Virus record (IMG/VR): IMGVR_UViG_3300027608_000011
Length of the DNA stretch: 64,000 nucleotides
Strand: one strand, 5' to 3'
Origin: a virus
Lineage: Duplodnaviria > Heunggongvirae > Uroviricota > Caudoviricetes
The first letter of the stretch is position 1. Each line of letters starts with the position of its first letter. Made by a program: the position numbers and the translations under genes. Positions 22,269 through 40,054 of the stretch are shown piece after piece. A model generated the notes under the pieces. That model was not told where the DNA came from and ran no database searches. It saw only the letters and a list, made by a program, of their open reading frames with translations.

Positions 22269-22303
22269 AACAGCCCTTGATAAATAATATCAAGGGCTGT
22301 TTT
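22269..22303 (+). terminator. 13-bp hairpin overlapping a late-promoter box and the downstream RBS
   Basis: AACAGCCCTTGAT-aaataat-ATCAAGGGCTGTT followed by a T-run. Confidence 0.75.
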
Positions 22304-22306
22304 ACT

Positions 22307-23245
22307 ATGCGACTATACGAATTATTAACTGAATACACTATATCTGAATTTGCACCAGGACCTGGTGGAGATGACGGATCCGGTGATGACCCATACAAAT
22401 ATCCCAAGCCAGAGCATTTTAGTCGTAGCGTAGATTTCTTTGGTCAATTCGAATCAGGTCACTTTGACCGTGAAGACATCGATGATGCCACTGGTGTGTT
22501 TAAAGGCTATTGGGGTAAAGATCAAATTGCCTATTTCAAATTTGATAACCCGCGGCGCACAGGCAGTGATGACCCGGGCATGGGCTGGTACTATGAACCC
22601 AGCGCAAACAGCAACGATAGTAACGACATGGTAGGGCATGCCGCTGACGATTCTGCACAACGCAAGCAACAAGAATTAAGCATGATTCGTGCGTTTTTAA
22701 AATCCGGACAAACTGCAAAGCCAGGCAGTCAGATTTATAGTTTAATGAAACGACATGGTGTAGCTGAAGGCAAGTTAGGGAATGTAATATCTTGGCCAGA
22801 AGTTGTGAACAAAATCACCAGCGCCATGAAAGCCACGGGCTGGAAAGGTCAGCGCCAAAGCGATGACGCTTTTATGTTTAGCACTAAAGGCCAACTTGAT
22901 GATGAGTGGTATATTGCTATTATTGACAATGTTGGGGATGGATTCTTTACATACGCATTAGGCACCGTAGAAGAAGGTGATCCGTATATCGACGATGCTT
23001 TTAAAGGTAAATTGCCTAATACCGAAGCTAGTGTAAGCGAACTATTAAATATTATCCGTGATGGGTATGGTTTAAATGAAGCTACTTACAAAGGTCGAGA
23101 AGTTAATTTAGGTGTTCCAGTAAAACACGGCGAGCATTTCTTTGTATACCAAAAAGATCCTATTACGCTAAGAGTTAAAAAGATTATTCTTAAAGACCCT
23201 ACAAAAAAAATTAAGCAAATTAAGCATCGTCGCCGCAGGCACTAA
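22307..23245 (+). CDS. Modular putative head-internal protein
   Basis: Starts MRLYELLTE; internal HGVAEG, ISE and LNE junctions. Confidence 0.6.
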   Translation: MRLYELLTEYTISEFAPGPGGDDGSGDDPYKYPKPEHFSRSVDFFGQFESGHFDREDIDDATGVFKGYWGKDQIAYFKFDNPRRTGSDDPGMGWYYEPSANSNDSNDMVGHAADDSAQRKQQELSMIRAFLKSGQTAKPGSQIYSLMKRHGVAEGKLGNVISWPEVVNKITSAMKATGWKGQRQSDDAFMFSTKGQLDDEWYIAIIDNVGDGFFTYALGTVEEGDPYIDDAFKGKLPNTEASVSELLNIIRDGYGLNEATYKGREVNLGVPVKHGEHFFVYQKDPITLRVKKIILKDPTKKIKQIKHRRRRH

Positions 23246-23258
23246 CTCAGGGATAGTA

Positions 23259-24173
23259 GTGAATTGGCTTAAACGAATAATACAAGCTTCGACATCAAAA
23301 TCTACGTGGGTATATCGAAATAAACCACGCAATTATAAAAACCCACGTATAGATTCTCATGCTATTGTACTTGTAGTATGTTATAAAGATTACCATTTAC
23401 TTCATATTTGTTTAAAGTCATTAGCAAAGAATTGGTTAGGTAATAAACATATCATTTTTATTTCGGAAGATATGGGTGATGAATATAAAGGTATAACTGC
23501 TGATATTTTGACGGACTGGAAAATAGAACACTACATGGCTCCTATTATGACACAGTATAATGGATGGTACAGGCAACAATGCTGTAAATTATGGGCAGGA
23601 CTAGTTGCTAAAGTAGAATGGCTAATAATTTTAGATTGTAAAAATGCATTGATAAAGCCCGTAGAATCCACAGAATTTATCAATGAAGACTATGTGTTAC
23701 TAAACGGTATTTCTGAACAAATAGGTTATGATCATAAATGGAGTTATAAAGTAAATACCAATAGTAAGTCCTGGGTTAACGGAAAAGACATAGGACTGTG
23801 TCCTGACACTACCACTCCTTGGGTTTTTAATGTCAGTGAACTCAAACTACTATGGGATAAATTTGACTTTACTGCATATACTGAAACAGAATGGGACGGG
23901 ACTGAGTTTTTTATATATTGGTATTGGGTTAATGAAAAATTTAACTGGGTACTTAACAGAATTACGTCAGGTGCATTAGCACTGGAGCCAACTCCCAACC
24001 TTATAGAACTTAATCCTGATTCTGTGATATATACTGCTGACCGCAGTCATTTAAAAGATCCTGTATTTTTTAAAATGTACATAGATTACCTAATTAAATT
24101 AGAAATATTAAATAATAAAGACTATGAAACAATACAAAATTACCAGCGAGACTTTCAGGAGTCCGGGCGATGA
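23259..24173 (+). CDS. GT-A-like / DUF6492-like putative glycosyltransferase
   Basis: VLVVCYKD, GWYRQQCCKL and LDCKN (DxD-like) motifs. Confidence 0.5.
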   Translation: MNWLKRIIQASTSKSTWVYRNKPRNYKNPRIDSHAIVLVVCYKDYHLLHICLKSLAKNWLGNKHIIFISEDMGDEYKGITADILTDWKIEHYMAPIMTQYNGWYRQQCCKLWAGLVAKVEWLIILDCKNALIKPVESTEFINEDYVLLNGISEQIGYDHKWSYKVNTNSKSWVNGKDIGLCPDTTTPWVFNVSELKLLWDKFDFTAYTETEWDGTEFFIYWYWVNEKFNWVLNRITSGALALEPTPNLIELNPDSVIYTADRSHLKDPVFFKMYIDYLIKLEILNNKDYETIQNYQRDFQESGR

Positions 24174-24426
24174 CCCAACAATACCTGACACTATTGTAGA
24201 TCCAGTAGCACTGGCCGAGCTTAAAAAATTAGCAGGGATAGACAGCCTAGGCATTATGGAAAGACATAGGGCATCCTCAGAAAGCCCTGTTGACGGACAC
24301 GTTGGCACAGACAAAGCTGAATATCAACGACAGCATAATATACGTCCAGGTACAGATGAATGGTTTAAACTGTGGTTTGCCCGTCAAAGTCTGACCGGTG
24401 AAGATCCTATGCCCAAAAAAAGTTGA
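24124..24426 (+). CDS. Small putative head-associated protein
   Basis: MKQYKITSE start resembles a T4 capsid-targeting sequence; LKKLAG; NIRPGTDEWFKLWF. Confidence 0.5.
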   Translation: MKQYKITSETFRSPGDDPTIPDTIVDPVALAELKKLAGIDSLGIMERHRASSESPVDGHVGTDKAEYQRQHNIRPGTDEWFKLWFARQSLTGEDPMPKKS

Positions 24427-24451
24427 CGGGGTAAGGTAAATACTGTATAAT
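24423..24451 (+). promoter_or_regulatory. sigma70-type promoter with an embedded TAAATA
   Basis: TTGACG-17 nt-TATAAT; TAAATA at 24437-24442. Confidence 0.7.
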
Positions 24452-24462
24452 AAGGAATCGCT

Positions 24463-25089
24463 ATGAGCATATACTATAAACGACTGGGATTAAACAGACT
24501 AGAAGATTTTCAAACATACATGATTGAAAATTATGTAACTACTCCTATTGAACCCAATATCACTGGCGACGGGCCGCCACTGTATAAATCTTTTCAGCCT
24601 CCTGAATTCCTATATACATTATTGAATTGGGAAGCCATTCAAATCCTAACAGGATCAAATGCCGTGACTCCGGGATATTTCAATATTATTGGGTTACCAC
24701 AACAAGAATACCCAAAAGTAGAAATTTCTAAACAAATTAAGACACACGTTGCAACACAAAAAGAAGCTAGTCAATTAAACACATGGTGGCTATTGCGTTT
24801 AACCATGTATGTTCCTATTAAAAATGGCGCTGATCACACATTGGAATTGTATGACGCAGAGTCAGGGCAACTTGTGGATTCCGTGGCATTAACAACACCA
24901 ATAATTGTAAGTAATGACCTGCATGTAAAAAGTGTAATTAATAATCCAGCTGGATGCTGGCATGTACAATTTTGTTTCCTTACTAACCATGCTTATGCCC
25001 ACACAGGAGAAACATTAATTACTCGTCTCACTACTGCAATGAAGCCGGTATCGGTTAGCTTCCCTAACAGCCAATATCTACCAGATTAA
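24463..25089 (+). CDS. Hypothetical protein, possible degenerate cupin/2OG-oxygenase fold
   Basis: Beta-rich, with His residues at plausible but noncanonical positions. Confidence 0.3.
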   Translation: MSIYYKRLGLNRLEDFQTYMIENYVTTPIEPNITGDGPPLYKSFQPPEFLYTLLNWEAIQILTGSNAVTPGYFNIIGLPQQEYPKVEISKQIKTHVATQKEASQLNTWWLLRLTMYVPIKNGADHTLELYDAESGQLVDSVALTTPIIVSNDLHVKSVINNPAGCWHVQFCFLTNHAYAHTGETLITRLTTAMKPVSVSFPNSQYLPD

Positions 25090-25090
25090 C

Positions 25091-26194
25091 ATGTATCAAA
25101 AACTCCATCCCTTAGGTCCACATACTACAGTAAGTCAGTTACCCGCCGATCATCCCATTTCGTGGGAAGTTGCTAATGGGTGTCCCACTACGTTTAGTTG
25201 GGAATATAATGACCATCGTAAAGAGTTATTAACACTCTACGAAAAAGCTAAAATTGGACAATGGGACGCTCAGACTAGAATTGATTGGACTATACCTACC
25301 GATCCCACTAATCCCATGGGTATAGATGAAACAATTATACCTTTATACGGCACTGAGTTATGGGGCAAATTGGGCAAAAAGGCGCAAGACGGTATTATAT
25401 ATGATTATAATGCTTACTTAATTGGTGCATTTTTACACGGCGAACAAGGTGCAATGATTAGTGCGGCAAAGATAATAGAAAGTGCTCCTGACCACGATGC
25501 TAAGTGGCTTGCAACTACACAGGCTATAGACGAAAGCAGACATATAGAAGCGTTTGGTAAATTTGCTCATAGGATTGACATGGTTCGTCCAGTACAGCGT
25601 AGCTTGATGAAAATGTATGAAGTTGCGTTTAAAAGCGACAAGTGGGACTTGGTCATGTTGAACAGTCACGTTGTTGCAGAGGGATGGGGACTGGGCAGTA
25701 TGCAATTGATGCGAGACAATGCCACTAACCCCTTGGCTAAAAGCATGTTGGCATATATTATGCAAGACGAAGCTAGACACATAGCATTTGGACGATATGT
25801 TCTTAAGGACCATTTTAGTAAATTAACCGCACAAGAGTTAATTGACCGAGAAGACTATTTAATTGCTTGTGTAATGTGGTTATACGCAAGATTAGATTTT
25901 ACAGAAATACTGGACCATCATCTGGACATGAAAGATGTTGGCCGTCAGATCAAAGATAACGTGGGATATCATAAAGTTAAAAAGCATATGATGAGTAGGA
26001 TAGTTCCTATTATAAGAGATATCGGGCTATTAACTCCTAGGATTCAAAAAACGTTTATTAAGTTGGGTATACTAGAAAACATAGATTTAAATTTCGATAC
26101 AATGTGGGATGAAGACAATGCCATTGCCACAAGTATGGAAGAAATAGTTAGAAATAGACTACTACAAGTTGGCGTAAATCCTGCTGTTCTGTAA
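25091..26194 (+). CDS. Ferritin-like diiron oxygenase (AurF-like)
   Basis: HGEQGAM, QAIDESRH, AEGWG and QDEARH paired DExRH diiron motifs. Confidence 0.8.
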   Translation: MYQKLHPLGPHTTVSQLPADHPISWEVANGCPTTFSWEYNDHRKELLTLYEKAKIGQWDAQTRIDWTIPTDPTNPMGIDETIIPLYGTELWGKLGKKAQDGIIYDYNAYLIGAFLHGEQGAMISAAKIIESAPDHDAKWLATTQAIDESRHIEAFGKFAHRIDMVRPVQRSLMKMYEVAFKSDKWDLVMLNSHVVAEGWGLGSMQLMRDNATNPLAKSMLAYIMQDEARHIAFGRYVLKDHFSKLTAQELIDREDYLIACVMWLYARLDFTEILDHHLDMKDVGRQIKDNVGYHKVKKHMMSRIVPIIRDIGLLTPRIQKTFIKLGILENIDLNFDTMWDEDNAIATSMEEIVRNRLLQVGVNPAVL

Positions 26195-26243
26195 CAAAAT
26201 CAAATGAAAATAATTCAATAAATATAAGTTATTGGATCATATT

Positions 26244-27485
26244 ATGCGTTTGTACGAACTTTTTATACCTGACAACCAGCATCAACTATTAGAATATAAT
26301 AGAGATGCTACATTAAAAAACTACGGTGGCAAGGTCGTCACTGTGGCACGTAAAGACCGCAGTATCCCACAGCAATTCAGAAGTACAGAAGTCTCAGATG
26401 ATCAGTTATTAGACTTAGTAATGACGCAGATAGAAGGATCCGACCCCACCCGCAATAAAGAGTATAGCCAAGCACTAACTAAAATATATACCAATGGCCA
26501 GACAGCATTTGAAGACATGGGGTCTACTGTAGCTGATTACTTAACAAAGTTTGACAAATTAAAACGTAAGAAAAAAATTCCAGCTCCACGTAACGATTTT
26601 ATGCGTTATGCTAACATAGGAGATTTCCTAAGTGTCGTTGATGAATATCCTAACCCCGATGAAGAAGAGTTAACTGACAAAGGTAGCTCAGACGAAATAT
26701 ACAAAGATGCTACGGTTCGTGTACTGCGCCCAAATAATAAAGAAGCGGCATGCTATTATGGGCAAGGCACTAAATGGTGTACTGCCGCAAAAAGTAATAA
26801 CCTGTTTGATACCTATGCTAGTAAGGGTGAATTATACATTATTATTCCAACTAAGCCGGAGTATGCAGGCGAGAAATATCAGTTTCACTTCCAAAGTCAT
26901 CAGTTCATGGATGAGCAGGATCAGAATGCAGACTTATTTGTTATCATCAATAAGTTCCCGCAACTTAAAAAACTATTTCATGACCAAGCTATAAAAAATA
27001 GTGAAGTTGCGTTCTTTATGTCTAGGCAAGAATTAGAAAAGAAATTACCAAAAGTAATACAGTCTATATATACTGGACTTAAGAATGAATATAAAGTTCA
27101 ATCAAGGGCCATGGCCAATGATGCGGCCAAAGATTTAAAAGCGTACATTGACAAAGGTATAGCACGTGAAGCCGCAGATGAATTCTTCGAGCAATTACAA
27201 GAACCTGACGGCGTTGCAGAGCTATTGTTTAGTGTTATACGTCAGTTACAACAAGACTATCATACTGGGCTCGACGAGGACGAATGGTTTGATAATACCT
27301 TAGATGTTTTCCAAGATTGGGTAACTGAACATTCTAATGCTTATTTGTTAATAACTGATTTTTACGAAGAAGATGACCAAATCTTTATGGATACTAATTT
27401 TTCATTGGCTGGAATTATGCAGAGTGTGGCAACAAAATATGTTATGGAAAATTTTAGAAAACTACTACTACAAGGAACTATATGA
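26244..27485 (+). CDS. Putative head-internal protein with PcfJ-like WC domain
   Basis: True start MRLYELF (26244); EAACYYGQGTKWCTA...Y...LYII motif. Confidence 0.55.
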   Translation: MRLYELFIPDNQHQLLEYNRDATLKNYGGKVVTVARKDRSIPQQFRSTEVSDDQLLDLVMTQIEGSDPTRNKEYSQALTKIYTNGQTAFEDMGSTVADYLTKFDKLKRKKKIPAPRNDFMRYANIGDFLSVVDEYPNPDEEELTDKGSSDEIYKDATVRVLRPNNKEAACYYGQGTKWCTAAKSNNLFDTYASKGELYIIIPTKPEYAGEKYQFHFQSHQFMDEQDQNADLFVIINKFPQLKKLFHDQAIKNSEVAFFMSRQELEKKLPKVIQSIYTGLKNEYKVQSRAMANDAAKDLKAYIDKGIAREAADEFFEQLQEPDGVAELLFSVIRQLQQDYHTGLDEDEWFDNTLDVFQDWVTEHSNAYLLITDFYEEDDQIFMDTNFSLAGIMQSVATKYVMENFRKLLLQGTI

Positions 27486-28876
27486 GATTTAGAGAATTAG
27501 TCGAGAACGCTATAGCCAGCGACATTAACGAAGAAAAAAAGATTAACGGACTATCAGTTATTAGCTTAACTGATTTTGTTCATGATAAAGAAGTCGACGA
27601 GCAAGGTGTAGCGGAAAGCTCGGGAGATACTGTAAAGTTTGAAGTTGATTCAGAAAACGCCTACAATCATGTTATGAAGCAGTTTGGGTCAGTAGTTGAA
27701 TGGAATGGCGACACTATGGTTGCTCCACGTAAGTATTGGGGCTCCATACAAGAATTAGCATATTCCGCCGGAGGTGAAGCAACCGAAGTTGGTAACGAGC
27801 AAGGCGTGGCGGAAGGCAGTTTAAAAGAAGCACCAGGCGACTTTGGCCTAGGTGCAAACTATCGTTCTATTCCAGATGATGAAATGCAAGACTTCATGGA
27901 CAGAAGCAAAACAAAAAAGAAAACCAAACGAGATAAATTTGATTATCCATATGTACACGGTAGCAACATTGAAGTTAAAGATGAAGCTGGAAAAAAATAT
28001 AATACAGAAGCTCTTAAGTCTGCAATTATGCAACGTCCTAAAAGTATACTAGGACAAAATGCTAAGATGCAACATAGTGAAACTGGCACCGAAGCAGTAT
28101 ATGATATTGGATTACCGGCTCTTAAAGGTCTTGCAGTAAATGAGAATACCGGCGAGTTTGTAGTAGTAGATACCTGCCCCGGGGCCGGCGCTTGCAAAAC
28201 ATATTGCTATGCGATGAAAGGTAGTTATGTTATGTTTAAGGCAGTTAGCCTAGGACTGTCACGTATGCTTAACTTCTTATTAAATGATCCAGAAGGCTTC
28301 TCGGCAAAACTCAATGACGAGATTGCCGAAGCTAAATTAAAAAATGCTAAAAAGGGAGCCAAGACTGTTGTGCGTTGGCATGATGCTGGAGACTTCTTTA
28401 GCGAGCAATATTTAGATATGGCTTATTCCGTTGCTAACACAAACCCAGGCGTAAGTTTTTATGCTTATACTAAAATGGGAGATGTAGCCAATGCAAGCCG
28501 TCCTAAGAACTTTAATATGAACTTTAGTCAAGGCGCATCCAGTGAGCAAGAGAAAAAAGTTGACATTGTACGCACCAAGCATAGTAAAGTAGTTCCCAAG
28601 GATATGTTCTTTGACTTGATTGACAGGGATGGTAATAATCTTAATAAAGATAGCAAAGGACGTATGCAATTTGCAAGTCCAGAAAAACGTAAAGAATTTA
28701 AAATACGTTTAGCCCACAAATATACAATAGACCCCACTACCATTTTAACCTATGATGAAATGATGCAACTTCCAATTGGTAGTAAACCAAAATGGAACGT
28801 TATCGTCATGCCAGGTGATGGGGATAATTCAGCCAATCGCAACGATGTCGTCGGTAGTTACTTATTGTTTCATTAA
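27482..28876 (+). CDS. Modular head-internal polyprotein with C-terminal GP88-like Fe-S/radical-SAM-like domain
   Basis: MRFRELVE start; two EQGVAE repeats; TCPGAGACKTYCYA, RWHDAGDFF and FYAYTK. Confidence 0.65.
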   Translation: MRFRELVENAIASDINEEKKINGLSVISLTDFVHDKEVDEQGVAESSGDTVKFEVDSENAYNHVMKQFGSVVEWNGDTMVAPRKYWGSIQELAYSAGGEATEVGNEQGVAEGSLKEAPGDFGLGANYRSIPDDEMQDFMDRSKTKKKTKRDKFDYPYVHGSNIEVKDEAGKKYNTEALKSAIMQRPKSILGQNAKMQHSETGTEAVYDIGLPALKGLAVNENTGEFVVVDTCPGAGACKTYCYAMKGSYVMFKAVSLGLSRMLNFLLNDPEGFSAKLNDEIAEAKLKNAKKGAKTVVRWHDAGDFFSEQYLDMAYSVANTNPGVSFYAYTKMGDVANASRPKNFNMNFSQGASSEQEKKVDIVRTKHSKVVPKDMFFDLIDRDGNNLNKDSKGRMQFASPEKRKEFKIRLAHKYTIDPTTILTYDEMMQLPIGSKPKWNVIVMPGDGDNSANRNDVVGSYLLFH

Positions 28877-29490
28877 TGCCATATAATACAAATATCCCCG
28901 GGCACATGAGTACCCAAGAATTGGCTGTAATCGAACAATGGGCCGCACAAGTTCCAAAAAACGGAGTTGTAGTCGAAGTAGGTAGCTTTTTTGGTAGGAG
29001 CGCAGTATGCTGGGCCATGTCATGTGATCCCAGTGTTGAAATAATATGTGTTGATCAGTTTCCTACTATTCTTCAAGTCCCACTTTCTTTTAAAGCGCAT
29101 CCTGGCAGTCCAACGCCCGGGGTTGATTACAGACTATGGGACATGTTTCGTGACAACACAAAAGAATACCCTAACATAACACCTGTACGTGGCCTAAGCC
29201 CATGGAAGATATCTTATCCAGGCAATTTAATTGATTTGTTTTTCTTAGACGCGGCACATACCAATCCCAGTGACTGGGACAACATTGTGTATTTTTCTAC
29301 TTTCCTAAAACCAGGTGCAATAATTGCTGGCCATGACTACGATAGTATGTTCCCTGACGTTGTTGAAAATGTACATAGATTAGAAAATATATACAATACC
29401 AAAGCAACATTTTATAAAGGCGGATGGTTATGGTCCATTACTATCCCCAATACTAATAAGTTAACAGACCATATAATTACTAATAAATGA
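28876..29490 (+). CDS. Class I SAM methyltransferase (Methyltransf_24-like)
   Basis: VEVGSFFGRS, FLDAAH and GHDY. Confidence 0.8.
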   Translation: MPYNTNIPGHMSTQELAVIEQWAAQVPKNGVVVEVGSFFGRSAVCWAMSCDPSVEIICVDQFPTILQVPLSFKAHPGSPTPGVDYRLWDMFRDNTKEYPNITPVRGLSPWKISYPGNLIDLFFLDAAHTNPSDWDNIVYFSTFLKPGAIIAGHDYDSMFPDVVENVHRLENIYNTKATFYKGGWLWSITIPNTNKLTDHIITNK

Positions 29491-29524
29491 AACATTCTGT
29501 ATTATTCAGTATAAATATATTACT

Positions 29525-29872
29525 ATGAGATTAAACGAACTTAAATCAGGAAGAAATACGCTAGGGCATACAGGTTCTGGGGATATTGAAATATCCAGAA
29601 TTGCCAGAAAAGCCCGTGCTATGTATCCTAATTTACAGCACGACGATTTAGAAGCCGTACTAAAATATCTAGACGTGGGATTAGACGGTGGCCAACGTGA
29701 AGTAGAAAAAATATCTAGAAGTGACGCAGAGCAAGAAAAAGATATTGATCACTTGGATCAAGAAGTTGATCAGTTAGATCGAGAAGTCGATGACTTAGAG
29801 TCCAAAGAAAAGACTGATAGAGATATTATTGCCGATTTACGCAATACCATTAAAATACTGCAAGCAAGATGA
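29525..29872 (+). CDS. Putative head-internal coiled-coil protein
   Basis: Follows TATAAATA; MRLNEL start; acidic heptads. Confidence 0.55.
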   Translation: MRLNELKSGRNTLGHTGSGDIEISRIARKARAMYPNLQHDDLEAVLKYLDVGLDGGQREVEKISRSDAEQEKDIDHLDQEVDQLDREVDDLESKEKTDRDIIADLRNTIKILQAR

Positions 29873-30279
29873 GATTATACGACCTACTCGAAGATGGTGA
29901 TACAAGTGCCGGGTCAATGGCAGTTGCAGTAATGCCTATAGGAACTATGCAACGTAGGATTCCTAGAAAAAAGAAAACAATAAAAGAAACGCCGATACAG
30001 CCAAATTTAGATGAGCCAACTAACCCTGACATATATGGCACAAAGGCAAATCCCAGTAATTTAAATTCACGTAGGTTACGTGCAATGGGACAATTAAAAG
30101 AGTTATCTAAACGTGCAGAGTCTGCAGAACAACATAATAGTTTAGAAATGTGGGAAAGCATCGTCGCTGATTTTAAAGAACTAACAATGAATATTGGCGA
30201 AATAGACCATGCTATTAATGAACTACGTGCATTACGAAAACGTGGCGGCATGTATAGCCGCGGAATCCCAAAACTTTAA
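29869..30279 (+). CDS. Putative head-internal protein
   Basis: MRLYDLLED start. Confidence 0.55.
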   Translation: MRLYDLLEDGDTSAGSMAVAVMPIGTMQRRIPRKKKTIKETPIQPNLDEPTNPDIYGTKANPSNLNSRRLRAMGQLKELSKRAESAEQHNSLEMWESIVADFKELTMNIGEIDHAINELRALRKRGGMYSRGIPKL

Positions 30280-30352
30280 TTATTTTATTTCTTTTTCAGC
30301 TAAATAATACATGAAAATCCCATTTAATGGGTACAAATCTGCGAGTTAATAT

Positions 30353-31774
30353 ATGAGTAAAAAATCAATGCAAACACAAATCATTGAAAGCGTATTGGAT
30401 GACACTGATGATGCTGGATTTATGGCAAAAAGTAATCTGTATAAGGCGATCAAAAACGGCATTCAATTACATAAGTTGATTACTGACACTGATCCTCTAG
30501 AGCCGTGGATTGCTGAAAAAATTAGCCTTGCATCCGATTACTTAGAAACTGTCAAGGACTATGTAGAATATAGAAATGTACACAACAACGAATTTACATT
30601 AGATGGTACCCGAGCTCATAGGCATCACGAATATGAAGAAAGTGCAATAAGCGAAGCAGAACAACAAGATCCTAATGCACAACAGGACCCAACACAAAAT
30701 CAACCAGCGGCGGCCGCTACTCCTGCTCCTGCACCACAAGCCGGTGCGTTAGCAACTGAGCCAGCTGTACCAACTGAAGTTGCTCCAGACCTAGGCAAGA
30801 TATTAGACGGTATTAAAAGAATTCAAAAGTATGCTAAATCTCGTGGTGACTTAGATCCTGAGTTTGACAAGGACAAGTTAGTCAAATTAATTAGTAAGAA
30901 GATAGAAGGTACCAGTCCGCAAGATGCAGAGAAGATTGCTAAATTTATATTTGACGGTGTTACTGAAAGTACAACCGTTAGAGTTGCAGAAGGCGGCACA
31001 AAAGATCGTCAATGGTCCAACAAAGACATGGAGAGGTTGCGTGTTGCCACCCGAGACTTTGATGATATAATGGCATCTGATGGACCTGACCAAACCAAGC
31101 ACGATTTAATTAAGAAGCGAATTCAAACAAAACCATTGGCAGGTCCTAAGGGCGTATTACCCGAAGAGCAAGGTGTAGCGGAAGGTGTAATGAAAGATAT
31201 ACATTTAGAATTATCGCAAATAGCAGAAGACGAAGACTACGATGCATTATATAATTTGATGTCGTCTGGCTCACCTGCAGGCAAATACGTGCAAAACATG
31301 GCCGAAGACATTACAATCGACAAGCGTTTACATCCAGATGATGACTTTGAGGAAATTCAAGAAGTGCTAATGGATCGTATAGTTGAAGAATTTGGCGGCG
31401 AAGATGTAGCCGAAGGTAATGGGGCTCATATGTTTGCCATGGGAGAGATTGTTTACCATGACAACAAAAAAGGTAAAGTAGATCGTCAAGAAGGTAACAA
31501 AGTATTTGTTCATATAGGCCATGGCGATATGGACGTGTGGCCAGCAGACGAAACAAGTATAGTCCGTCAAGGTGCTATTCCTACAATGAAAAAGCACATA
31601 GGACAAATGGGTAGAGGACTTAAAGGATTTGTAACTGGACGTCCTGAGTTAGAAGAACAAAATGTAATGGACGAGTGGGCACAATATAAATTATCAACCA
31701 CACGTTCTACTAGTAACGAATCGGTCGAGCAAGAAGTTCAAATGCGTATGTCTAAGATGTTTGGTAAAAAATAA
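30353..31774 (+). CDS. Modular putative head-internal polyprotein
   Basis: After TAAATA; RVAEG, EQGVAEG and EDVAEG junctions; P/A/Q linker. Confidence 0.6.
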   Translation: MSKKSMQTQIIESVLDDTDDAGFMAKSNLYKAIKNGIQLHKLITDTDPLEPWIAEKISLASDYLETVKDYVEYRNVHNNEFTLDGTRAHRHHEYEESAISEAEQQDPNAQQDPTQNQPAAAATPAPAPQAGALATEPAVPTEVAPDLGKILDGIKRIQKYAKSRGDLDPEFDKDKLVKLISKKIEGTSPQDAEKIAKFIFDGVTESTTVRVAEGGTKDRQWSNKDMERLRVATRDFDDIMASDGPDQTKHDLIKKRIQTKPLAGPKGVLPEEQGVAEGVMKDIHLELSQIAEDEDYDALYNLMSSGSPAGKYVQNMAEDITIDKRLHPDDDFEEIQEVLMDRIVEEFGGEDVAEGNGAHMFAMGEIVYHDNKKGKVDRQEGNKVFVHIGHGDMDVWPADETSIVRQGAIPTMKKHIGQMGRGLKGFVTGRPELEEQNVMDEWAQYKLSTTRSTSNESVEQEVQMRMSKMFGKK

Positions 31775-33060
31775 TGGCCGGACCCATAGCACCAACAAAG
31801 CCATTGCTACCCGGACAAAAGCCGCCGATGTCTGGTGCGCCAGGCCAGACGCCTGCTAATCCTAATGCTCCACAAGCGCCAGGCCAGCCGCCTGCTAATC
31901 CCAACGATCCTAATGCACAGGCCAATCCTAATGCGCCTGATCCAACTACTAAGGCTCCGGGTGAATCTTCGTTTAGTATTAAAACAGCACAAGATCCTAC
32001 TGGAACGTTCCATATATTCGCTAAAAGTGAAATGGAAGCAAAACAAAAATATGAGCAAATGGGTAAACCAATGGGCCCAGCAACTCAAGCATCAAAAGTA
32101 AATGAGGAATCAATCATGACATATCGAGAACGTGTAGAACAATTTCACAATGAATCTTTTCCAACGTTGGAAAATGCCATTGTAAATACATTACAAGAAA
32201 ACCTACTTGAAAATGGAGTAGATTATTACGTTGACAACGGAATTAAGACACGCATTAAACAAACAGCAGTAGATATTGTGGAAACATTATTACAGTACAG
32301 TAATGATTTTATTCCGTTTTACGTTGAAAGCAACGGAGAATATACTATTAAAATTGGTACATTAGAAGAAGAAACTTTAGTAGAAGCAGATGTTAGTATT
32401 CCTGACCCAACTAAAATTTCTGTTAAACAAAATGCCGCTGGCACATTTAAAGTGTATGTAGGTGAGAATATTGCAGATACATTCGATAGCATCAAAGGTG
32501 CTACGAAATTTGTACAAACTTTAGTGTCAGAGACACGAGCACAATTTGACGAATTGGACGAAATGTTCCAATATACTATCGGAGTAAGTATGGTAAACGA
32601 AGGCAAAAAGAAAATGGCTAAAGAAGGCAGTGCCTTTGATTGGCAATCTAAAACTGATGATGACAAACCAAAAGTTGGAAGTAAAAAACAAACTAGCAAA
32701 GGCGAAGTTGAATATACTGCTACTGGACAAATTCATCGTTCAAAACAAAATTATGGCGGAGCGCCTGATTCAGACGACAACGAAGAAGGCAAAGACAAAA
32801 ACGGTGAGCCACGTGGCCGCGGCCGTCCTCGCACAAGACCGTTGCCAGATCCTGATGCACCAAAGCGCGGTCGTGGACGTCCAAAGAAAGTCAAAGAAGC
32901 ACAAATTCAAATGGCTACTCTTAAGAAACAAGTTAAAGAAACTATTCGTAAGATTGAGTCGTTACCGTCAGGTCAACGCAATAGTGCAAAAGTAGCAGAA
33001 GTAGTACAAAAATTACACGAGTCTGTTAGTCGTGCTGTTCATGCCGCTCGTATGCTATGA
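31774..33060 (+). CDS. Putative head-internal protein with two AT-hooks
   Basis: PRGRGRPR and KRGRGRPKK; Pro/Asn/Gln-rich N-terminus. Confidence 0.6.
   Translation: MAGPIAPTKPLLPGQKPPMSGAPGQTPANPNAPQAPGQPPANPNDPNAQANPNAPDPTTKAPGESSFSIKTAQDPTGTFHIFAKSEMEAKQKYEQMGKPMGPATQASKVNEESIMTYRERVEQFHNESFPTLENAIVNTLQENLLENGVDYYVDNGIKTRIKQTAVDIVETLLQYSNDFIPFYVESNGEYTIKIGTLEEETLVEADVSIPDPTKISVKQNAAGTFKVYVGENIADTFDSIKGATKFVQTLVSETRAQFDELDEMFQYTIGVSMVNEGKKKMAKEGSAFDWQSKTDDDKPKVGSKKQTSKGEVEYTATGQIHRSKQNYGGAPDSDDNEEGKDKNGEPRGRGRPRTRPLPDPDAPKRGRGRPKKVKEAQIQMATLKKQVKETIRKIESLPSGQRNSAKVAEVVQKLHESVSRAVHAARML
31837..31911 (+). repeat. 39-nt imperfect tandem duplication (APGQxPANPNxPx)
   Basis: gcgccaggccag(a/c)cgcctgctaatcc at 31837 and 31876. 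Confidence 0.8.
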
Positions 33061-33209
33061 GATTGTTTGAGTTAATTGAATCGAGAAAAGAGAATACTAA
33101 AATATTCTCTCCTCAAGTTAAAGCTACGGAAAAAGCAAAAAATATCCCCGTTGGTAAATGGGGTACAAAACACCCATTCAATGGTAGATTAGTAGGCGAG
33201 GGATCGTAA
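33057..33209 (+). CDS. 50-aa putative head-internal protein (not in ORF track)
   Basis: MRLFELIESRKENTK...HPFNGRLVGEGS; ATGA overlap; carries the shared N-terminal motif. Confidence 0.7.
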   Translation: MRLFELIESRKENTKIFSPQVKATEKAKNIPVGKWGTKHPFNGRLVGEGS

Positions 33210-33210
33210 C

Positions 33211-33651
33211 ATGGAAGAATTAGTTCACTCAATGAAAGTTGTACAAGCCAGTACATTTGCTTTTTATTTAAAAACACATAACTTTCACTGGAATGTAGAA
33301 GGTCCAGACTTCCCACAATATCATAAATTCTTTGAAGAATTGTATACCGAACTATGGTTAGCAGTTGATCCAATCGCCGAACACATTAGAGCCCTTGGCG
33401 CATTTGCTCCTGGCAGTTTAGCTAGGTTTGCTGAACTAAGTGTAATCGAAGATGAATTAAAAGTGCCGGCTGGCCTAGCTATGATTGCCAAATTACATGA
33501 TGATAACGAGCAAGTCATTGGCACATTGTTTAAAGCATATGAGTATGCAAACGCAATGCAAGAAATAGGTCTGAGTAATTTTATTCAAGACCGTGTAGAC
33601 GTCCATAAAAAACATGCTTGGATGCTACGTAGTATTTTACGCAGAAACTAA
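33211..33651 (+). CDS. dps: Dps (mini-ferritin)
   Basis: KTHNFHWNVEG..F...H.FFEELY......D.IAEHIRALG; HKKHAWML. Confidence 0.93.
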   Translation: MEELVHSMKVVQASTFAFYLKTHNFHWNVEGPDFPQYHKFFEELYTELWLAVDPIAEHIRALGAFAPGSLARFAELSVIEDELKVPAGLAMIAKLHDDNEQVIGTLFKAYEYANAMQEIGLSNFIQDRVDVHKKHAWMLRSILRRN

Positions 33652-33679
33652 ATTAGTTTCGAACCCCGGGTAACTGCTG

Positions 33680-34006
33680 ATGTTACCAATTTTTATTACC
33701 AATATGCAAAAGTATAAACCACGCCATAAGGCGACCACTAAGTCGCGGCCGAATGAAAATATATCTCCTAATGAAATCCACCAATTGACTAAATTGTTCA
33801 GTGATGAAGAATTAACTATTGTCAAGAAACTGGCATTAAAGGAAATAGATTATAATAGCTCACCAGTGTCAGACGATATTCAAGATAAGTTATATGATTT
33901 CTTTCATAACAAAATGCCGTCAAATATAATTCAAAATGCATTTCAAAGTCCTGGCAACTGGATTGTTAATCGATTAAATAGCTTATATAGAAACACACTA
34001 CCTTAG
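33680..34006 (+). CDS. Hypothetical protein
   Basis: 108-aa ORF; start uncertain. Confidence 0.5.
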   Translation: MLPIFITNMQKYKPRHKATTKSRPNENISPNEIHQLTKLFSDEELTIVKKLALKEIDYNSSPVSDDIQDKLYDFFHNKMPSNIIQNAFQSPGNWIVNRLNSLYRNTLP

Positions 34007-34085
34007 GACCTTATGGTTTTCAGTGTGGGGCGGCTACTGCCCTGGAACAAGTAGGAGTCGTGCCCGAAAGTTCCTAAAGTGTGCA
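34005..34085 (+). ncRNA. Candidate structured intergenic RNA of unknown family
   Basis: GC-rich island in AT-rich DNA with three helices and a possible loop-loop pseudoknot. Confidence 0.4.
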
Positions 34086-34096
34086 TTAATTTAGTA

Positions 34097-34125
34097 TTGA
34101 CTCATTGGCCAGTTAATGCTATAAT
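34097..34125 (+). promoter_or_regulatory. sigma70-type promoter
   Basis: TTGACT-17 nt-TATAAT. Confidence 0.75.
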
Positions 34126-34133
34126 TACATGTT

Positions 34134-34760
34134 ATGAATATAATTGAAATTAATAAAGACCCAGCTATCATTGATGTTGAGTTTCCTGAATTTGAAAGAT
34201 TTGACACCGACAAGTTATTCGAAGCCGCACCTAGTAGAATTAATTATGGTGAGTTAGATGTGGAAGCGGAAAGACTTACTATACTTCCACTAAATGATAA
34301 CAATGAAGAATTTGATAATTTTAGCAAAGAATTATATACACCGTTACGTCTTATTACAAAAAAATTAATTGAGTTAGATCCTATACGATATCCATTGTTT
34401 GATAGTCCTAACTTTGATCTGTGGTATACTAAGCGTTTTGCAAGTCGAGTTAAAATAGGATTTAGTAGAATAATCGACAGCCCCGGATTTCACCAAAGCT
34501 GGCACATTGATAATAGATTTGTTTTGCTGTCAGGTATAATAAATCTACAAGACAATGAAACACAGACCCATTTTGCCAGCGAACGTATTATGCGCTGGAT
34601 GCCGGAACAAGTAGAGCATGAGTACCCAGAAAAAATCAGGCATCGCGGCCGAAATAAAAAATGGCAAGGTACATTCTGGCTTAATACTGAAACCCAATGG
34701 CATTGCGTACCACTAGTAACTACTACTAGAAAGATTTTATTGTGTAATTTATTCTTATGA
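34134..34760 (+). CDS. Putative 2OG-Fe(II) oxygenase-like protein
   Basis: WHIDN (HxD) ... WHCV distal His, followed by RK. Confidence 0.55.
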   Translation: MNIIEINKDPAIIDVEFPEFERFDTDKLFEAAPSRINYGELDVEAERLTILPLNDNNEEFDNFSKELYTPLRLITKKLIELDPIRYPLFDSPNFDLWYTKRFASRVKIGFSRIIDSPGFHQSWHIDNRFVLLSGIINLQDNETQTHFASERIMRWMPEQVEHEYPEKIRHRGRNKKWQGTFWLNTETQWHCVPLVTTTRKILLCNLFL

Positions 34761-35500
34761 AAAAATACTTTACTATTCCTTATAAGGTTCTGTACCTACA
34801 AATATTAGCACATCTAGGATTAGCTTATCAGTTGTTCTACGGAGACGTATGGATGTGGATAGTGTCACTGGTAGTATTTGTTATATCAGGATGCTTTGGC
34901 TTGGTAATGACGTATCATAGATTACTAGCACACAATAGTTGGCCAGCTAGTTCCACATATAGAAAGGTAGGTAGCCTATTAGGATCGTATGCTGGAATAG
35001 GCAGTCCAATGGTATGGACTGCGGTACATAGAGCCCATCATAAATTTGTAGATACTGCTAAAGATCCACATAGCCCCGAACACCTAGGCTTTGCCCGAGT
35101 GCAATTTTTAGGAATGTTTGGTCAAGCAGGCGGCGAACATATTATAGATATGTTAAGGGATAAGTTTCAAACTAATTTAAATCGTTACTATTTTCACTTA
35201 CATATATTAGTAGGTATAGTTTGGTTGGTTATTAATCCTGCATTGTTTATATGTGCATATCTTGCTCCAATGGCATTACTGTGGGAAATAGGTGGTAGCG
35301 TAAACACTATTAATCATTTGTTTGGTTACAAGAACAAAGAAAACTCCAAGCATCATGCCTACAATAATCCCATAACAGGATATATGTTTTTTGGGGAAGG
35401 CTGGCATGCTAACCATCACGATGACCCGTTAAATTATACAACTAAACAAAAGTGGTGGGAATTTGATCTTGCAGGACTGATGATCAAATTGGTTAAATAG
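34757..35500 (+). CDS. Membrane fatty-acid (delta-9-like) desaturase
   Basis: Three His boxes (YHRLLAH, HRAHH, WHANHH), NTINH and TM segments. Confidence 0.9.
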   Translation: MKKYFTIPYKVLYLQILAHLGLAYQLFYGDVWMWIVSLVVFVISGCFGLVMTYHRLLAHNSWPASSTYRKVGSLLGSYAGIGSPMVWTAVHRAHHKFVDTAKDPHSPEHLGFARVQFLGMFGQAGGEHIIDMLRDKFQTNLNRYYFHLHILVGIVWLVINPALFICAYLAPMALLWEIGGSVNTINHLFGYKNKENSKHHAYNNPITGYMFFGEGWHANHHDDPLNYTTKQKWWEFDLAGLMIKLVK

Positions 35501-35503
35501 TAC

Positions 35504-36163
35504 ATGCGCCACGAAGACTTTCTATCAGAATACGACGAATCATCTAAGAATAGTAAGCAAATCATATCTAAATTAAAAGAATTAGGATATGATATGCTAG
35601 GGTCCGGCTACGATTCTACTGTATGGAGTAAAGATGCTGGCAGTGTTATTAAAATTATAATGCCCAGTGATGTAGTTCGTGCTGAGGGAGATTCTGCTTT
35701 TGTAAATTTCTACGAATTTTGTAAGGCAAACTCTAGTCCATTTTTACCAAAGTTTATTAGTATAGGCGGCGAGGATCATACAGTGTTTACGCTAAACGAT
35801 GTCCCGTACAGACAAATATCCATGGAAAAACTTAAACCCATACCAGTTAATACATTTAACGAACAAATGGTGTGGGCATTATCTGAATTGGCTGTTGTGC
35901 CATTTATTAAATGGCGTGATGCAAAAAAACAAATCACCCAAGCTGAATTTTGGAAACATTTCGAAGGGCCGGGTGATGAACAAGATGTAATAAGAAATTT
36001 AGCTAATCCTCAGACAGAGCATTTATGGTTATCGTTTCTAGATGTAATAAAAAAATTATATATCTTTGGTCGTGGACGCGGAATGGGCTGGGATTTACAT
36101 ACTGAAAATGTAATGATGAGAGGCGAGGTTCCTGTTATTGTTGACCCGTTCACAGGATCATAA
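35504..36163 (+). CDS. Protein-kinase-like enzyme with capsid-targeting-like N-terminus
   Basis: LGSGYDSTV, VIK, MEKL, DLHTEN and VDP; MRHEDFLSE start. Confidence 0.8.
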   Translation: MRHEDFLSEYDESSKNSKQIISKLKELGYDMLGSGYDSTVWSKDAGSVIKIIMPSDVVRAEGDSAFVNFYEFCKANSSPFLPKFISIGGEDHTVFTLNDVPYRQISMEKLKPIPVNTFNEQMVWALSELAVVPFIKWRDAKKQITQAEFWKHFEGPGDEQDVIRNLANPQTEHLWLSFLDVIKKLYIFGRGRGMGWDLHTENVMMRGEVPVIVDPFTGS

Positions 36164-36165
36164 TT

Positions 36166-39100
36166 ATGAAACTAAGAGAATTACTTGAAACAATTGTTAC
36201 TGAAAGTACACTAAGCGTTGATGTGCCAACTGAAGAATGGCTACAGGATAAAATTGATTACGCTAAGAAAAAAGGCCGCAACGAATACGGAGTTCCATAT
36301 ATGGGTAGCACCACTGCGTCAGTTCGTGGAACTCCGCCAAAGGTACGTGTAGTTAGATTGCACAGCCTTCGCGGTATGCGCCGTGAGCAAACCAATGTTC
36401 GCTACAATGATTTAAAGTGGTTAATGGACTACATGGATAAGAATAAGAAGTTACCGCCCATGGGTAGCAGTCCTGATAGTGAATACTTGCCTTACATTAT
36501 GGTTGCTTACAATGGTGAAGCATGGGTCAATGAAGGCAATCATCGTATTATGGCCGCATATAGATTAGGATGGGATACTATGCCCATTGAGATCAGATAC
36601 TTTGACGGCGGAGAGCGAGTAGAAGATGGTCCCATGTACCCGGGAAAAATAGGATTAGGTAATACACCAAAAGTTAAAGAGCAAGATGTTTCAGAAGCAC
36701 CGGCTGGATACAAAGAAATAGAATTTGTATGTGTTAATCCACAATTCCCAGATGCTACTGATCCTGCATTGCAGAAAAAGATGTATCGCGGACTAAAACA
36801 AATTGACGGAGTTGTTCCATTATGGCAAGAATGGGGTGATTACAGTGAAGGTCAGGCAAGTCTAAGTGCAATATATCAAGATTCTGACAGTCGTGATAAA
36901 ATATTATCACTGGCAAAACAACTGGGTGTTGAAGTGGATCTAGAGCAAGCAGTATCAGCTGACTATGTTGACCGTGCCAGGCGCGGAGAGCACGAAGGCC
37001 AGCAAGGCGTGGCGGAAGGCTTACAGAATAATGGAATTAGTTTTCGTGTACAAAAGGGTAAAAATAAATTTGTCACTACCATGACAGTTAATAACGAGCA
37101 GGTGGGTGTATACCAATATGATGCTACTACAGGTCGTAGCATAGCCGAGGTTTATCCAGAATTCAAGGGCAAAGGATTTGGTAAATTATTGGTTTTACAT
37201 GCTATCTATACCGCGGCCAAATTAGGATTAGATTTCCAAGAAGATGAATCAAGAACTGCTGAGTATGATAATGTGTTAGACAGTTTGAGTAGCAACAGTT
37301 ATATTGTAGATGATGATGGATATTGGTACGTTACTGGTGAGGGCGAACAATACCTACAACAATCATTAAAACAAGGTGTGGCGGAAGGCTCTGTACAGAT
37401 TAGTGAATATAGAGATAGATTGTTGCAATATGTCAAGAGTCTGTTACCTAACTACCCGGAGTATGTTCTTAAAGATTGGTTGGTACCCAACAAAGGTGAC
37501 TTTAGCAATTTGCCAGACACAGATCTCAAAAATGGCATAATGGAAAAATTAAAGTTGGCAGGACTTACACCTAACACCAAATGGCAACTTGTACCCGATA
37601 TGAAGTTTACAATGGATATGTTTGAGCCAAAGACTAAGCAACGATTGATTGGTCGTGCCGGCGGCTCAAGTGATTTAGGTATGGGTATACCTCGAGACAA
37701 AGAAAGACACGCAACTCAAGCGGCCTTAGCACAACAACAAGGTGGTGTGCGTAAAGAACCAGTGCTATTAATAAAAACAGACAAGGGCTACGAATTGTTA
37801 GAAGGGTGGCATAGAACTATACAACACTTTGCCAAGTATCCCAACGGTTATACAGGGCCTGCTTATGTGGCAGTTGCACAGCAAGGTGTGGCGGAAGCAC
37901 GTAGTAACCCAGAGCAGAATGTCAAGTACGAGTCCGGCATGAAAGAATTGGTGGCTGTTGCCAACTCTATTGCAGATACAGAAAACTGGGCCATTAGCAT
38001 GACCAGTGAGGCCAAGCTAGGCATCAACCCGCAAGTGGGCATCAGTGAAGACACACCCAAAGGCATTTACTTCTATCCACTGGACTATGCTGTAGACTTT
38101 GCCCGCCGCGGTAAAAAATTACCCTGGGGCCATGACTACCTTTATATTCAGTTGTTTCAATATGACCGTTCAGGTGAAATGACAAAAGAAACATCTGTAG
38201 ATTCTAATAAACTAAAACAAGCATTGCTTCAATATTGTCCTGAAGATGTAATTCAACAGGCCATAGACGAACCCGAATACGATGGTACACCATATTATTT
38301 CATTTACGATTGTTTAAGCAGACTGGGAAAAAGCGACGAAACTAATGTTGTTCGTTGGAACAAGGTCCTGCGTGATCTAGGCTTTACCAGTGTGTTTGAC
38401 GACGGGCATGGATGGATTGCCCACAATGAACCCACGCAAGGTGTAGTACTAGATCCAAGAGTTATCAAACAACTCAAGACTATTAGTAATAAAAAACAAT
38501 CAAAATTAATTACACCTGCTGTGATTGAACGGGCCATATTTGAGACTATGGACATGGAGTTAGCCGCTAGTAGATCATGGCAAGCATATGATCCAGACGG
38601 CAGTAAACTTAGAGCGGCGGCCAAGGAGTATGCCAAGAAACCTGAATTCAAACAGTGGTTTGGAAAACAAGCCACAGAAGAAATATTTGATAAGGCGGCA
38701 AGCTGGGGCAGATATGGTGCAAGACAATTGAGCCAAGAAGCGTGGGCTTGGTATAAAGAACAACAAGCTCAACAACCAGTTAAACAAGAAAGTTTAGAAG
38801 AGGCTCCATTGGCTGATTACGAGCCATTGGGAGACTTTACTAAGCCCGGACCGTTCACAGGTGCGGATAAAAAATTAATCCCACATCCGGCTAATCAACT
38901 TAAAGCTGAACAATTCTTTTCCAAGACGCCGTATGATATTAGATTATTCTTTAGTAACCTTACTGGTACAGGAAAATACAGTGAGTATGGTGTTATGGCC
39001 CCAGATGTGTTAAAGATAATATTTGGTGACGATGCTGATAAAATTATCAATGGACACGATGATGCAATCACAGTGGTATATGTTGGCAACAAAGGCGACA

Positions 39101-40024: not shown

Positions 40025-40054
40025 CAATCACGATTAACTATTGTATAATAAATA
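40021..40054 (+). promoter_or_regulatory. Perfect sigma70 promoter overlapping a TAAATA box, driving the radical SAM array
   Basis: TTGACA(40021)-17 nt-TATAAT(40044); TAAATA at 40049. Confidence 0.8.

Follow-up and report, generated by a model that had tools for sequence, protein, structure and literature searches.

An in-frame QGVAE linker with conserved DNA lies between exchangeable modules of putative head-cargo polyproteins in a freshwater jumbo phage

We analysed a 64,000-nt stretch of DNA (IMG/VR record IMGVR_UViG_3300027608_000011; hereafter the window) from an uncultured freshwater (lake) jumbo phage of the T4 superfamily, in which a short repeat encoding the peptide QGVAE recurs in frame inside late-looking genes. 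The repeat is held constant at silent positions, stands between unrelated protein modules, and marks the points at which homology between related phages breaks off. On balance we think it probable that these genes encode late-made, head-targeted polyproteins that are cut at (V/L/I)-x-E into cargo proteins, with the linker DNA acting as an in-frame recombination joint. According to this proposal, the region 22.3-40.0 kb would encode head-cargo proteins, each gene opening with a short tag, and four of the genes would be polyproteins of two to six unrelated modules joined by QGVAE/G (the slash marks the predicted cut), by copies that have drifted from it, or by remnants of tags with the pattern L/I-x-E/A/Y. 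The cargo genes would be made late, and the tag would carry the whole chain into the prohead core. There, a gp21-type prohead protease would take off the tag and cut after the Glu of each (V/L/I)-x-E joint. One gene would yield several separate small proteins, which would remain inside the head and pass into the cell together with the DNA. The 20-nt sequence AGCAAGGTGTGGCGGAAGGC would serve as a homology patch where the phage's own recombination joins, swaps, gains and loses modules with the frame intact.

A first-pass annotation of the window had described ten in-frame copies of the motif in four late genes, with shared codons and at module boundaries. All ten are present, in four + strand genes. 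The sequence CAAGGNGTNGCNGAA has six exact matches on the + strand, against 0.00 expected from 100 dinucleotide shuffles, and these six core copies all read QGVAE in frame (two in the open reading frame (ORF) 27482-28876, one in 30353-31774 and three in 36166-39627). Four degenerate copies are likewise in frame: HGVAEG at 22754, RVAEGG at 30980, DVAEGN at 31400 and QDVSEA at 36679. The peptide VAEG occurs eight times in the approximately 19,170 residues of the window against 0.28 expected, with seven of the eight inside the four linker genes. A chance or low-complexity repeat is ruled out by these counts, since none of the 100 shuffles contained a match. GCG makes up 10.9% of the Ala codons of the window, yet it is used in six of six core copies (p ~2e-6 if independent), while the shared CAA and GAA are common codons and uninformative. 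Homology limits agree with the proposed module boundaries for nine of the ten copies (22754, 27599, 27797, 31166, 31400, 36679, 37000, 37369 and 37879).

To place these copies, we used 139 related loci gathered from IMG/VR by protein search and pattern search (L numbers below); the cargo genes and linkers of the window all lie on the + strand. The tagged gene 22307-23245 (MRLYELLTE..., 312 aa) has two modules. Homology to L003 and L004 covers its residues 9-154 and ends 2 nt from the degenerate linker HGVAE/G (22754-22774; CAT GGT GTA GCT GAA GGC), the DNA match ending at 22769. The tagged polyprotein 27482-28876 (MRFRELVEN..., 464 aa) consists of a tag region, a 66-aa mini-module and a GP88-domain module (PF17338, E = 6e-32). 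Its first core linker, EQGVAE/S (27599-27619), differs from the 20-nt consensus at two bases and is where the match to L119 (residues 43-107) begins. Its second, EQGVAE/G (27797-27817, one mismatch), coincides with the start of module matches at residues 103-106 and is followed directly 3' by another candidate site, SLKE/AP (27818-27832). In L043, L001 and L105 the GP88 module forms a gene of its own behind a tag, whereas in L033 it comes after a different module. The polyprotein 30353-31774 (473 aa) has a variant N-terminus (..QTQIIE/S) and an N-domain (residues 24-73) that is also found in tagged proteins of relatives. It contains the degenerate copy RVAE/GG (30980-31000) and a module, residues 278-354, bounded by the core linker EQGVAE/G (31166-31186; matches begin at residues 270-273) and the degenerate linker EDVAE/G (31400-31420; matches stop at residues 354-355, which is the linker position).

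The longest chain is the tagged polyprotein 36166-39627 (MKLRELLETIVTE/S..., 1153 aa). We divided it into six modules, each of which occurs elsewhere alone or in other combinations: residues 1-171 (ParB-like), 178-284, 285-407 (GNAT-like), 408-577 (ParB/Srx fold), 578-874 and 875-1153 (zincin-like, as a lead only). Its joints are the degenerate linker EQDVSE/A (36679-36699; AG CAA GAT GTT TCA GAA GCA), the core linkers QQGVAE/G (37000-37020, one mismatch; matches stop or begin at 37001-37035), KQGVAE/G (37369-37389, one mismatch), which is followed by the tag remnant SVQISE/YRDRL, and QQGVAE/A (37879-37899, two mismatches; matches end at 37880-37897), and finally the junction ESLEE/APLADY (38773-38787), which lacks QGVAE. 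This last junction (SLEE/AP) and SLKE/AP at 27818-27832 are of the same L-x-E/AP type and were both absent from the first-pass annotation. A second L/I/V-x-E site shortly after the linker is not generally enriched (27 of 147 contexts within 14 residues; background 2.2% per position), although such sites do exist at particular joints.

The N-terminal tag, also missing from the first-pass annotation, has the form M-R/K-x-x-E/D-L/F-hydrophobic-x-E, is 8-13 residues long and starts at least nine genes between 22.3 and 40.0 kb. In relatives it mostly reads MRAxEF..E. Tag and linker go together: the tag is found in 31 of 54 linker proteins, compared with 76 of 1217 other ORFs of the family loci, a set that includes spurious ORFs (odds ratio 20, p = 1e-21). 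Delivery into the head by means of a tag, followed by gp21 processing, is known from T4. The tag matches the description of the T4 capsid targeting sequence (CTS) in its approximately ten residues, its hydrophobic positions and its terminal L/I-x-E; this is a match of pattern, not of homology, by which the tag resembles a counterpart of the CTS. In T4, the first ten residues are enough to bring even foreign proteins into the head; targeting depends on positions 4 and 7, processing on positions 8 and 10 (PMC9026906). This capsid-targeting-like tag is the strongest argument for head delivery. In a complete related genome, G001, a tag-like N-terminus (MILNELYQRE) is carried by a small gene between portal and protease. 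This interval is also where T4 keeps its prohead-core genes.

Proteases of the T4 gp21 type follow the rule of a cut after Glu with a hydrophobic residue at P3. The peptide QGVAE-G, which the first-pass annotation had put forward as such a site, fits this rule (V-A-E, then G), and relatives of the phage encode the protease. Both G001 and a second genome, G003, contain a gp21-type Peptidase_S77 (PF03420; 87 and 85 bits) together with a gp23 capsid gene (325 bits) and an adjoining scaffold gene. The predicted sites in the capsid propeptide of G001 are LLE/G (twice), ILE/N and LKE/N.

In our view, the best indirect evidence that the joints are processing sites comes from their equivalence with tag sites. 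Where the module at residues 408-577 stands alone, its N-terminus MRASEFLIE/YRDRL aligns with QGVAE/GSVQISE/YRDRL of the window. Likewise, stand-alone MRASEFLIE/APLTDY aligns with SLEE/APLADY at the start of module 875-1153. The reverse also occurs, with the window's own tag, ..ETIVTE/S, aligning with an internal IKEQTVTE/G in L033 and L061. Cutting after Glu would thus produce the same mature N-terminus in every arrangement. These alignments bear on the possibility that the chains are multi-domain 'polyvalent' proteins that act uncut, with QGVAEG as an exposed hinge and recombination joint and no protease site, which we consider unlikely. In other phages and on plasmids, polyvalent proteins can remain at full length while they act or travel (PMC5512222), cleavage has here been read from sequence, and the structural model is of low confidence, and the chain probably flexible, at the linkers: the AlphaFold predicted local distance difference test (pLDDT) score is below 50 at linkers 2 and 3, which flank the confident ParB/Srx-fold domain, a pattern that we also count in favour of the main proposal. 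However, an invariant hexapeptide is rare in flexible hinges, and the drifted copies keep V or L, a small residue and E (HGVAE, DVAE, QDVSE, QTVTE and QEVDE), which is the protease rule. In addition, as shown above, the internal joints match up with tag processing sites of stand-alone homologues.

We then turned to the DNA of the linker. The codon test set consisted of 33 distinct linker contexts from loci found by module homology and not by the motif, and is unbiased for linker codons. In this set, the linker Ala codon is GCG in 29/33 contexts against a background of 8%, Val is GTG in 28/33 (background 31%), Gly is GGT in 29/33 (34%), and the Gly after the linker Glu is GGC in 17/18 (36%). 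The conservation extends into the codon before Gln, where the amino acid varies (E, Q or K) and the always-favoured ending is AG (GAG in 9/10 Glu codons, CAG in 6/6 Gln codons). The family-wide DNA consensus from 144 canonical copies is the 20-mer AGCAAGGTGTGGCGGAAGGC, which covers the silent positions as well as the last two bases of the variable preceding codon; just outside it, information content falls to ~0.1 bit on both sides. The six window copies are one or two bases off this consensus. A 12-mer core, GGTGTGGCGGAA, lies in frame within a long ORF in 110 of 112 places.

A constraint on the DNA beyond the amino acids had been suspected in the first-pass annotation, and codon use across unrelated contexts (GCG 29/33 against 8%) is the stronger evidence for it. 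The comparison of synonymous sites in homologous pairs goes in the same direction, with silent identity of 79% in the linker against 62% in the flanks, but this gap is modest and was obtained on a partly ascertainment-biased set. The codons of the tag in the same proteins served as an internal control. They vary freely between synonyms; therefore, short conserved peptides in this family do not automatically fix their codons. Conversely, 30 of 174 GVAE copies have drifted to ordinary AT-rich codons with the peptide retained, and the degenerate copies of the window retain V, a small residue and then E. Because these drifted copies keep the peptide, we conclude that peptide and DNA are each under a constraint of their own. 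We infer that it is recombination, rather than another constraint, that keeps the linker DNA fixed.

An alternative source of silent-site conservation would be a function in the mRNA or in translation, for example a programmed pause, caused by the rare GUG and GCG codons and an AGGUG Shine-Dalgarno-like stretch, that lets the modules fold sequentially. We regard this as improbable. The two codons are indeed infrequent (GCG 8-11% of Ala codons, GTG 13-31% of Val codons), AGGUG is within the consensus, and the conservation spans two bases of a codon whose amino acid varies. However, no Rfam family reached its gathering score in 22-40.1 kb, and no fold is shared around the six core copies (z-scores -1.15 to +1.86, with pairings that differ per copy). 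The 30 copies that have lost the special codons persist, and codon rarity here refers to the phage's own codon usage. A pause would also leave unexplained why homology breaks exactly at the element.

Module identities are weak overall. The first module of the 1153-aa protein matches a PHROG ParB-like family (E = 0.0015), and the GNAT match (E = 0.002) is below the Pfam cut-off. An AlphaFold model of residues 160-600 is confident only for a domain at residues 409-575, with pLDDT below 60 for the modules at 172-284 and 285-407. Within the confident domain, residues 472-575 match a ParB/Srx fold (Z = 7.6, root mean square deviation 2.8 Å over 81 residues), and five further ParB/Srx-type chains match at Z 5.2-6.3. 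Residues 875-1153 resemble ATLF/M90-type peptidase clusters in a language-model search (score 0.92-0.93), which we treat as a lead only. This module (38788-39624), which is widespread as a stand-alone tagged gene, and its homologues (L001, L105, L011 and L019) contain an invariant M-A-H-R-x-G-H-A at the position of the zincin HExxH, followed by a later conserved E..FAQYL. In each of the five members aligned, Arg replaces the catalytic Glu of HExxH. Judged from this alignment, the module may have an inactivated or unusual metallopeptidase fold.

A zincin-like module raises the question of whether an enzyme other than the prohead protease cuts the chains at the linkers, namely this C-terminal module, another phage protease or a host protease. 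The resemblance to ATLF/M90-type peptidases and the conserved H-R-x-G-H with its downstream E..FAQY would favour the first of these, and self-processing by such domains has been proposed for polyvalent proteins (PMC5512222). We nevertheless think it very unlikely that another enzyme is responsible, given the Arg in place of the catalytic Glu. Moreover, most linker proteins (e.g. 27482 and 30353) have no zincin-like module, the linker site obeys the gp21 rule, and gp21-type proteases are found alongside the family.

We next consider the exchange of modules between phages. The first-pass annotation had predicted that relatives would carry the same modules in other orders or genes, and this is what we found, with homology breaking at the motif. 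All boundaries of DNA matches within 36166-39627 (contig ends excluded) are at most 19 nt from a joint, apart from three at 34-38 nt ahead of one. Those of 127 matches to database proteins cluster at residues 172, 278-289, 402-409 and 577-582. L018 is 100% identical to the window from 36680, in the first bases of the degenerate linker, and unrelated immediately upstream; the 91.5% identity of L010 starts at 36680 too. Away from the window, L005 and L007 are syntenic with ~89% identity over 20 kb. In one orthologous gene of this pair, silent differences are found throughout the upstream module, the linker is identical at 18/18 positions, and the downstream sequences are unrelated. Modules from residues 172-590 of the 1153-aa protein recur in more than 234 long database proteins, which add deaminase, NUDIX, nucleotidyltransferase, lysozyme-type, Zeta-toxin and GIY-YIG domains. 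Among the matches listed, 107 of 120 module-sharing proteins have at least one linker.

The sharp edges of the conserved DNA, its strictly in-frame position and the gain and loss of cassettes exactly at the site might also be produced if the 20-mer were the core site of a dedicated recombinase or nuclease moving in-frame cassettes, with the peptide a tolerated by-product, but this is the least probable of the alternatives and likewise very unlikely, because the site lacks dyad symmetry and a folded form, drifted copies retain the peptide (which implies that the peptide itself is selected), no linked candidate enzyme turned up (no systematic search for recombinase genes was made), and T4-type phages need no special enzyme to recombine at short homologies (PMC2839356).

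Some further observations concern the arrangement of linkers in relatives. One gene call, P0003, starts at the VAEG of the linker at window position 37372, and several contigs or gene calls (P0003; L072, L114 and L106) begin or end 0-25 nt from a linker, too few to test. Such ends would be expected if assemblies branch where co-existing strains carry different modules beside one linker. In L044, reverse-strand linkers at 3763, 3925, 4090 and 4252 are regularly spaced at 162-165 nt and separate mini-modules of ~54 aa; L073 has seven linkers in 892 aa, with similar runs of mini-modules. These runs look like tandem cassette duplication by unequal exchange between linkers.

Returning to the proposal of head-targeted, cleaved polyproteins, its timing draws on promoter-like boxes. 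T4 late promoters carry an ATAAATA-type consensus. The window has nine copies of ATAAATA on the + strand (8986, 15119, 17594, 21942, 22280, 26218, 29511, 40048 and 61117), all of them intergenic and 14-197 nt upstream of a start codon, while the full TATAAATA is depleted (2 found against 11 expected). Three lie just upstream of strings of tagged genes: 22280-22286 is 27 nt before the start of 22307, 26218-26224 is 26 nt before 26244, and 29511-29517, within a full TATAAATA box, is 14 nt before 29525. ATAAATA is probably the late-promoter box of this phage and could be used to map its late regulon. Going by these boxes, the linker genes may be expressed late.

Several points weigh against the proposal. 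Every proposed step is predicted from sequence. The propeptide sites of G001 have Leu or Ile at P3 and never Val, so that acceptance of V-A-E is assumed, and the protease and capsid genes have been seen in relatives only, at 59% polymerase identity. No recognisable tag was found on 23 of the 54 linker proteins, some of which may be start-codon miscalls, and gene 36166 has no late-promoter box of its own. Module functions depend on sub-threshold matches and the one fold match at Z = 7.6. As to recombination, 20 nt is short for efficient homologous exchange, the sharp break in L018 marks the onset of homology and not the position of a crossover, and the silent-site gap between linker and flanks counts for less than the codon bias. 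In addition, selection for 'evolvability' is a weak force, and another constraint on DNA or RNA may be at work. Taken together, the observations of the first-pass annotation (repeat, boundaries and codons) hold, and its interpretation is supported in part. Cleavage, packaging, injection, late expression and an effector role against the host or its defences are steps that we infer.

More tentatively, and with rather less confidence than in the polyproteins themselves, we propose that the 18-20-nt element is dual-coded: as protein, it would be a cut site in the capsid, and as DNA, a universal in-frame splice point in hundreds of genes of a giant lake phage lineage. If this were so, ordinary recombination could move any module into any cargo gene of related phages, where it would automatically be expressed, packaged and released. 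Such a system would be a prokaryotic, intron-free counterpart of exon shuffling that generates combinatorial arsenals of injected proteins.

As for the source phage, the window has a G+C content of 37.7%, and nearly all of its genes are on the + strand. It contains tail-fibre genes, a family-B DNA polymerase and, near 5.8 kb, a gene that we take from its N-terminal sequence to be clamp-loader-like; no head genes were found in its 64 kb. The nearest cultured relatives of the polymerase are those of the jumbo phages Sinorhizobium phage Phosso, Agrobacterium phage Atu_ph07 and the PBECO4 group (43-50% identity). Searches against cultured phages gave no DNA matches for 26-40 kb (megablast) and none for the 1153-aa protein (tblastn), and the GP88 module (27482-28876) matched only hypothetical proteins of actinophages. 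An identical 1153-aa protein is found on metagenome contigs of up to 219 kb, including one 172-kb contig from JGI sample 3300027797. The best available relative is G001, a complete viral genome of 346,856 bp with terminal repeats, whose polymerase is 59% identical to that of the window.

The remaining tagged genes of the region are as follows. The gene 26244-27485 (MRLYELF..., 413 aa) has no canonical linker, matches viral families of unknown function and opens the operon containing 27482. Small tagged genes are found at 29525-29872 (MRLNELK..., 115 aa), 29869-30279 (MRLYDLLED..., 136 aa) and 39638-40024 (MRAHELFED..., 128 aa), and a tagged mini-gene at 33057-33209 (MRLFELIES..., 50 aa). The tagged gene 35504-36163 (MRHEDFLSE..., 219 aa) is kinase-like (phrog_15752 protein kinase, E = 2.9e-6), with a match to PF18762 Kinase-PolyVal (E = 0.067) that is below the cut-off.

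Directly 3' of polyprotein 30353, in the same late-looking operon, 31774-33060 encodes a 428-aa protein without tag or linker, with a P/Q/N-rich N-terminus and C-terminal AT-hook-like repeats (GRGRP/RGRGRPKK); it is possibly a protein of the head or nucleoid that binds DNA. An AurF-like di-iron oxygenase (25091-26194), a ferritin/Dps-like gene (33211-33651) and a fatty-acid desaturase (34757-35500), labelled from Pfam on an identical contig, are interspersed among the cargo genes. The last tagged gene is followed immediately by a run of radical-SAM-type genes (40066-48102), which has an ATAAATA box of its own at 40048. Adjacent DnaJ-like and ClpA/ClpB-like ATPase genes (11332-14401), as we read them from their N-terminal sequences, would presumably form a phage chaperone pair.

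If our proposal is correct, it explains how giant phages put together, and quickly reshuffle, large repertoires of proteins delivered to the host along with the DNA, at the moment that decides the outcome of infection against restriction, CRISPR and other defences. It would also be a clear example from nature of two-level selection on a single short sequence, as protease site and as recombination joint. In practice, with a tag-module-linker-module design, a single gene could be enough to bring several chosen proteins into a phage head; for single proteins, the T4 CTS is already in use. Finally, tag plus QGVAEG offers a simple sequence rule by which candidate injected effectors can be picked out from the many unannotated genes that environmental jumbo phages carry.

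A full-text literature search for QGVAE returned matches that, among those listed, all concern alpha-synuclein and none phage, and we did not find the combination of an invariant in-frame linker as candidate cut site and DNA joint of module exchange described. Its parts have known counterparts. Like the T4 proteins IPI, IPII, IPIII and Alt, the window's putative cargo consists of otherwise unrelated proteins with a short N-terminal tag ending in L/I-x-E, a gp21-family protease is present in relatives, and, as with T4 internal proteins, the cargo differs between relatives (PMC9026906; PMC5694885). The T4 cargo consists of single proteins cut once or twice at their ends, whereas here up to six unrelated modules follow one tag, with a dedicated invariant internal site as the putative cut point. 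In the giant phages phiKZ, 201phi2-1 and SPN3US, many head proteins (inner-body and ejection proteins, processed by gp175 or gp245) are cut after Glu in a short recognition motif, and some chains have more than one such site. These phages belong to a different lineage, have long propeptides (>100 residues) and use S/A/G-x-E or A-x-E, and shuffled strings of modules or DNA-conserved sites have not been reported from them.

The polyvalent proteins combine 2-15 conflict-related domains per polypeptide, are thought to be delivered with the DNA and show extensive mosaicism (Iyer et al. 2017, PMC5512222). The six-module 1153-aa protein has at least two unrelated effector-type domains in one polypeptide, as polyvalent proteins do, and the domain types overlap (ParB-like, GNAT, kinase and zincin-like peptidase), though window matches to the signature domain families are below Pfam cut-offs only. 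Self-processing there has been proposed to depend on a metallopeptidase domain, and a conserved linker is not described (PMC5512222). In-frame motifs that mark points of exchange are found in the gp38 adhesins of T-even phages, where hypervariable segments are set apart by conserved glycine-rich motifs and exchanges tend to fall within these motifs or close to them (Trojet et al. 2011, PMC3157838). Those motifs form the structural core of one domain in one gene family, in contrast to the unrelated domains, many gene families and cleavage-site-like sequence seen here. A bacterial parallel is the pre-toxin motif of polymorphic toxins (VENN in CdiA), a short conserved peptide that, together with its DNA, marks the exchange point of C-terminal toxin modules; it differs in having a single boundary per protein and in belonging to bacterial secretion systems, with no capsid protease involved.

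The first-pass annotation had called the system integron-like. It shares with integrons the exchangeable cassette arrays bounded by a recurring short site, but integron sites lie between genes, as imperfect palindromes that fold and are cut by the tyrosine recombinase IntI. The 20-mer is a direct repeat without dyad symmetry or stem-loop, and none of the six core copies has an attC-like folded imperfect inverted repeat (z -1.15 to +1.86; integrase genes were not searched for), so the term can be kept as an analogy only. Because the joints are 20-nt in-frame direct repeats, short-homology recombination, as at the promoter/stem-loop (PeSL) cassettes of T4-type phages, is a closer known mechanism. 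In these phages, less than 50 bp of homology is enough for recombination, and cassettes are shuffled by way of conserved linker sequences (PMC2839356). Like our linker, PeSLs are short conserved sequences that flank variable genes and act as homology patches for phage recombination, letting cassettes be inserted, deleted or swapped at safe places (Arbiol et al. 2010, PMC2839356; Comeau et al. 2014, PMC4122927). PeSLs are intergenic, ~100 bp long and made up of a promoter and a terminator hairpin, while the linker is a 20-nt, intragenic, in-frame and peptide-coding sequence (in an ORF at 110/112 places) without a stem-loop. The linker may thus work like a PeSL without being one.

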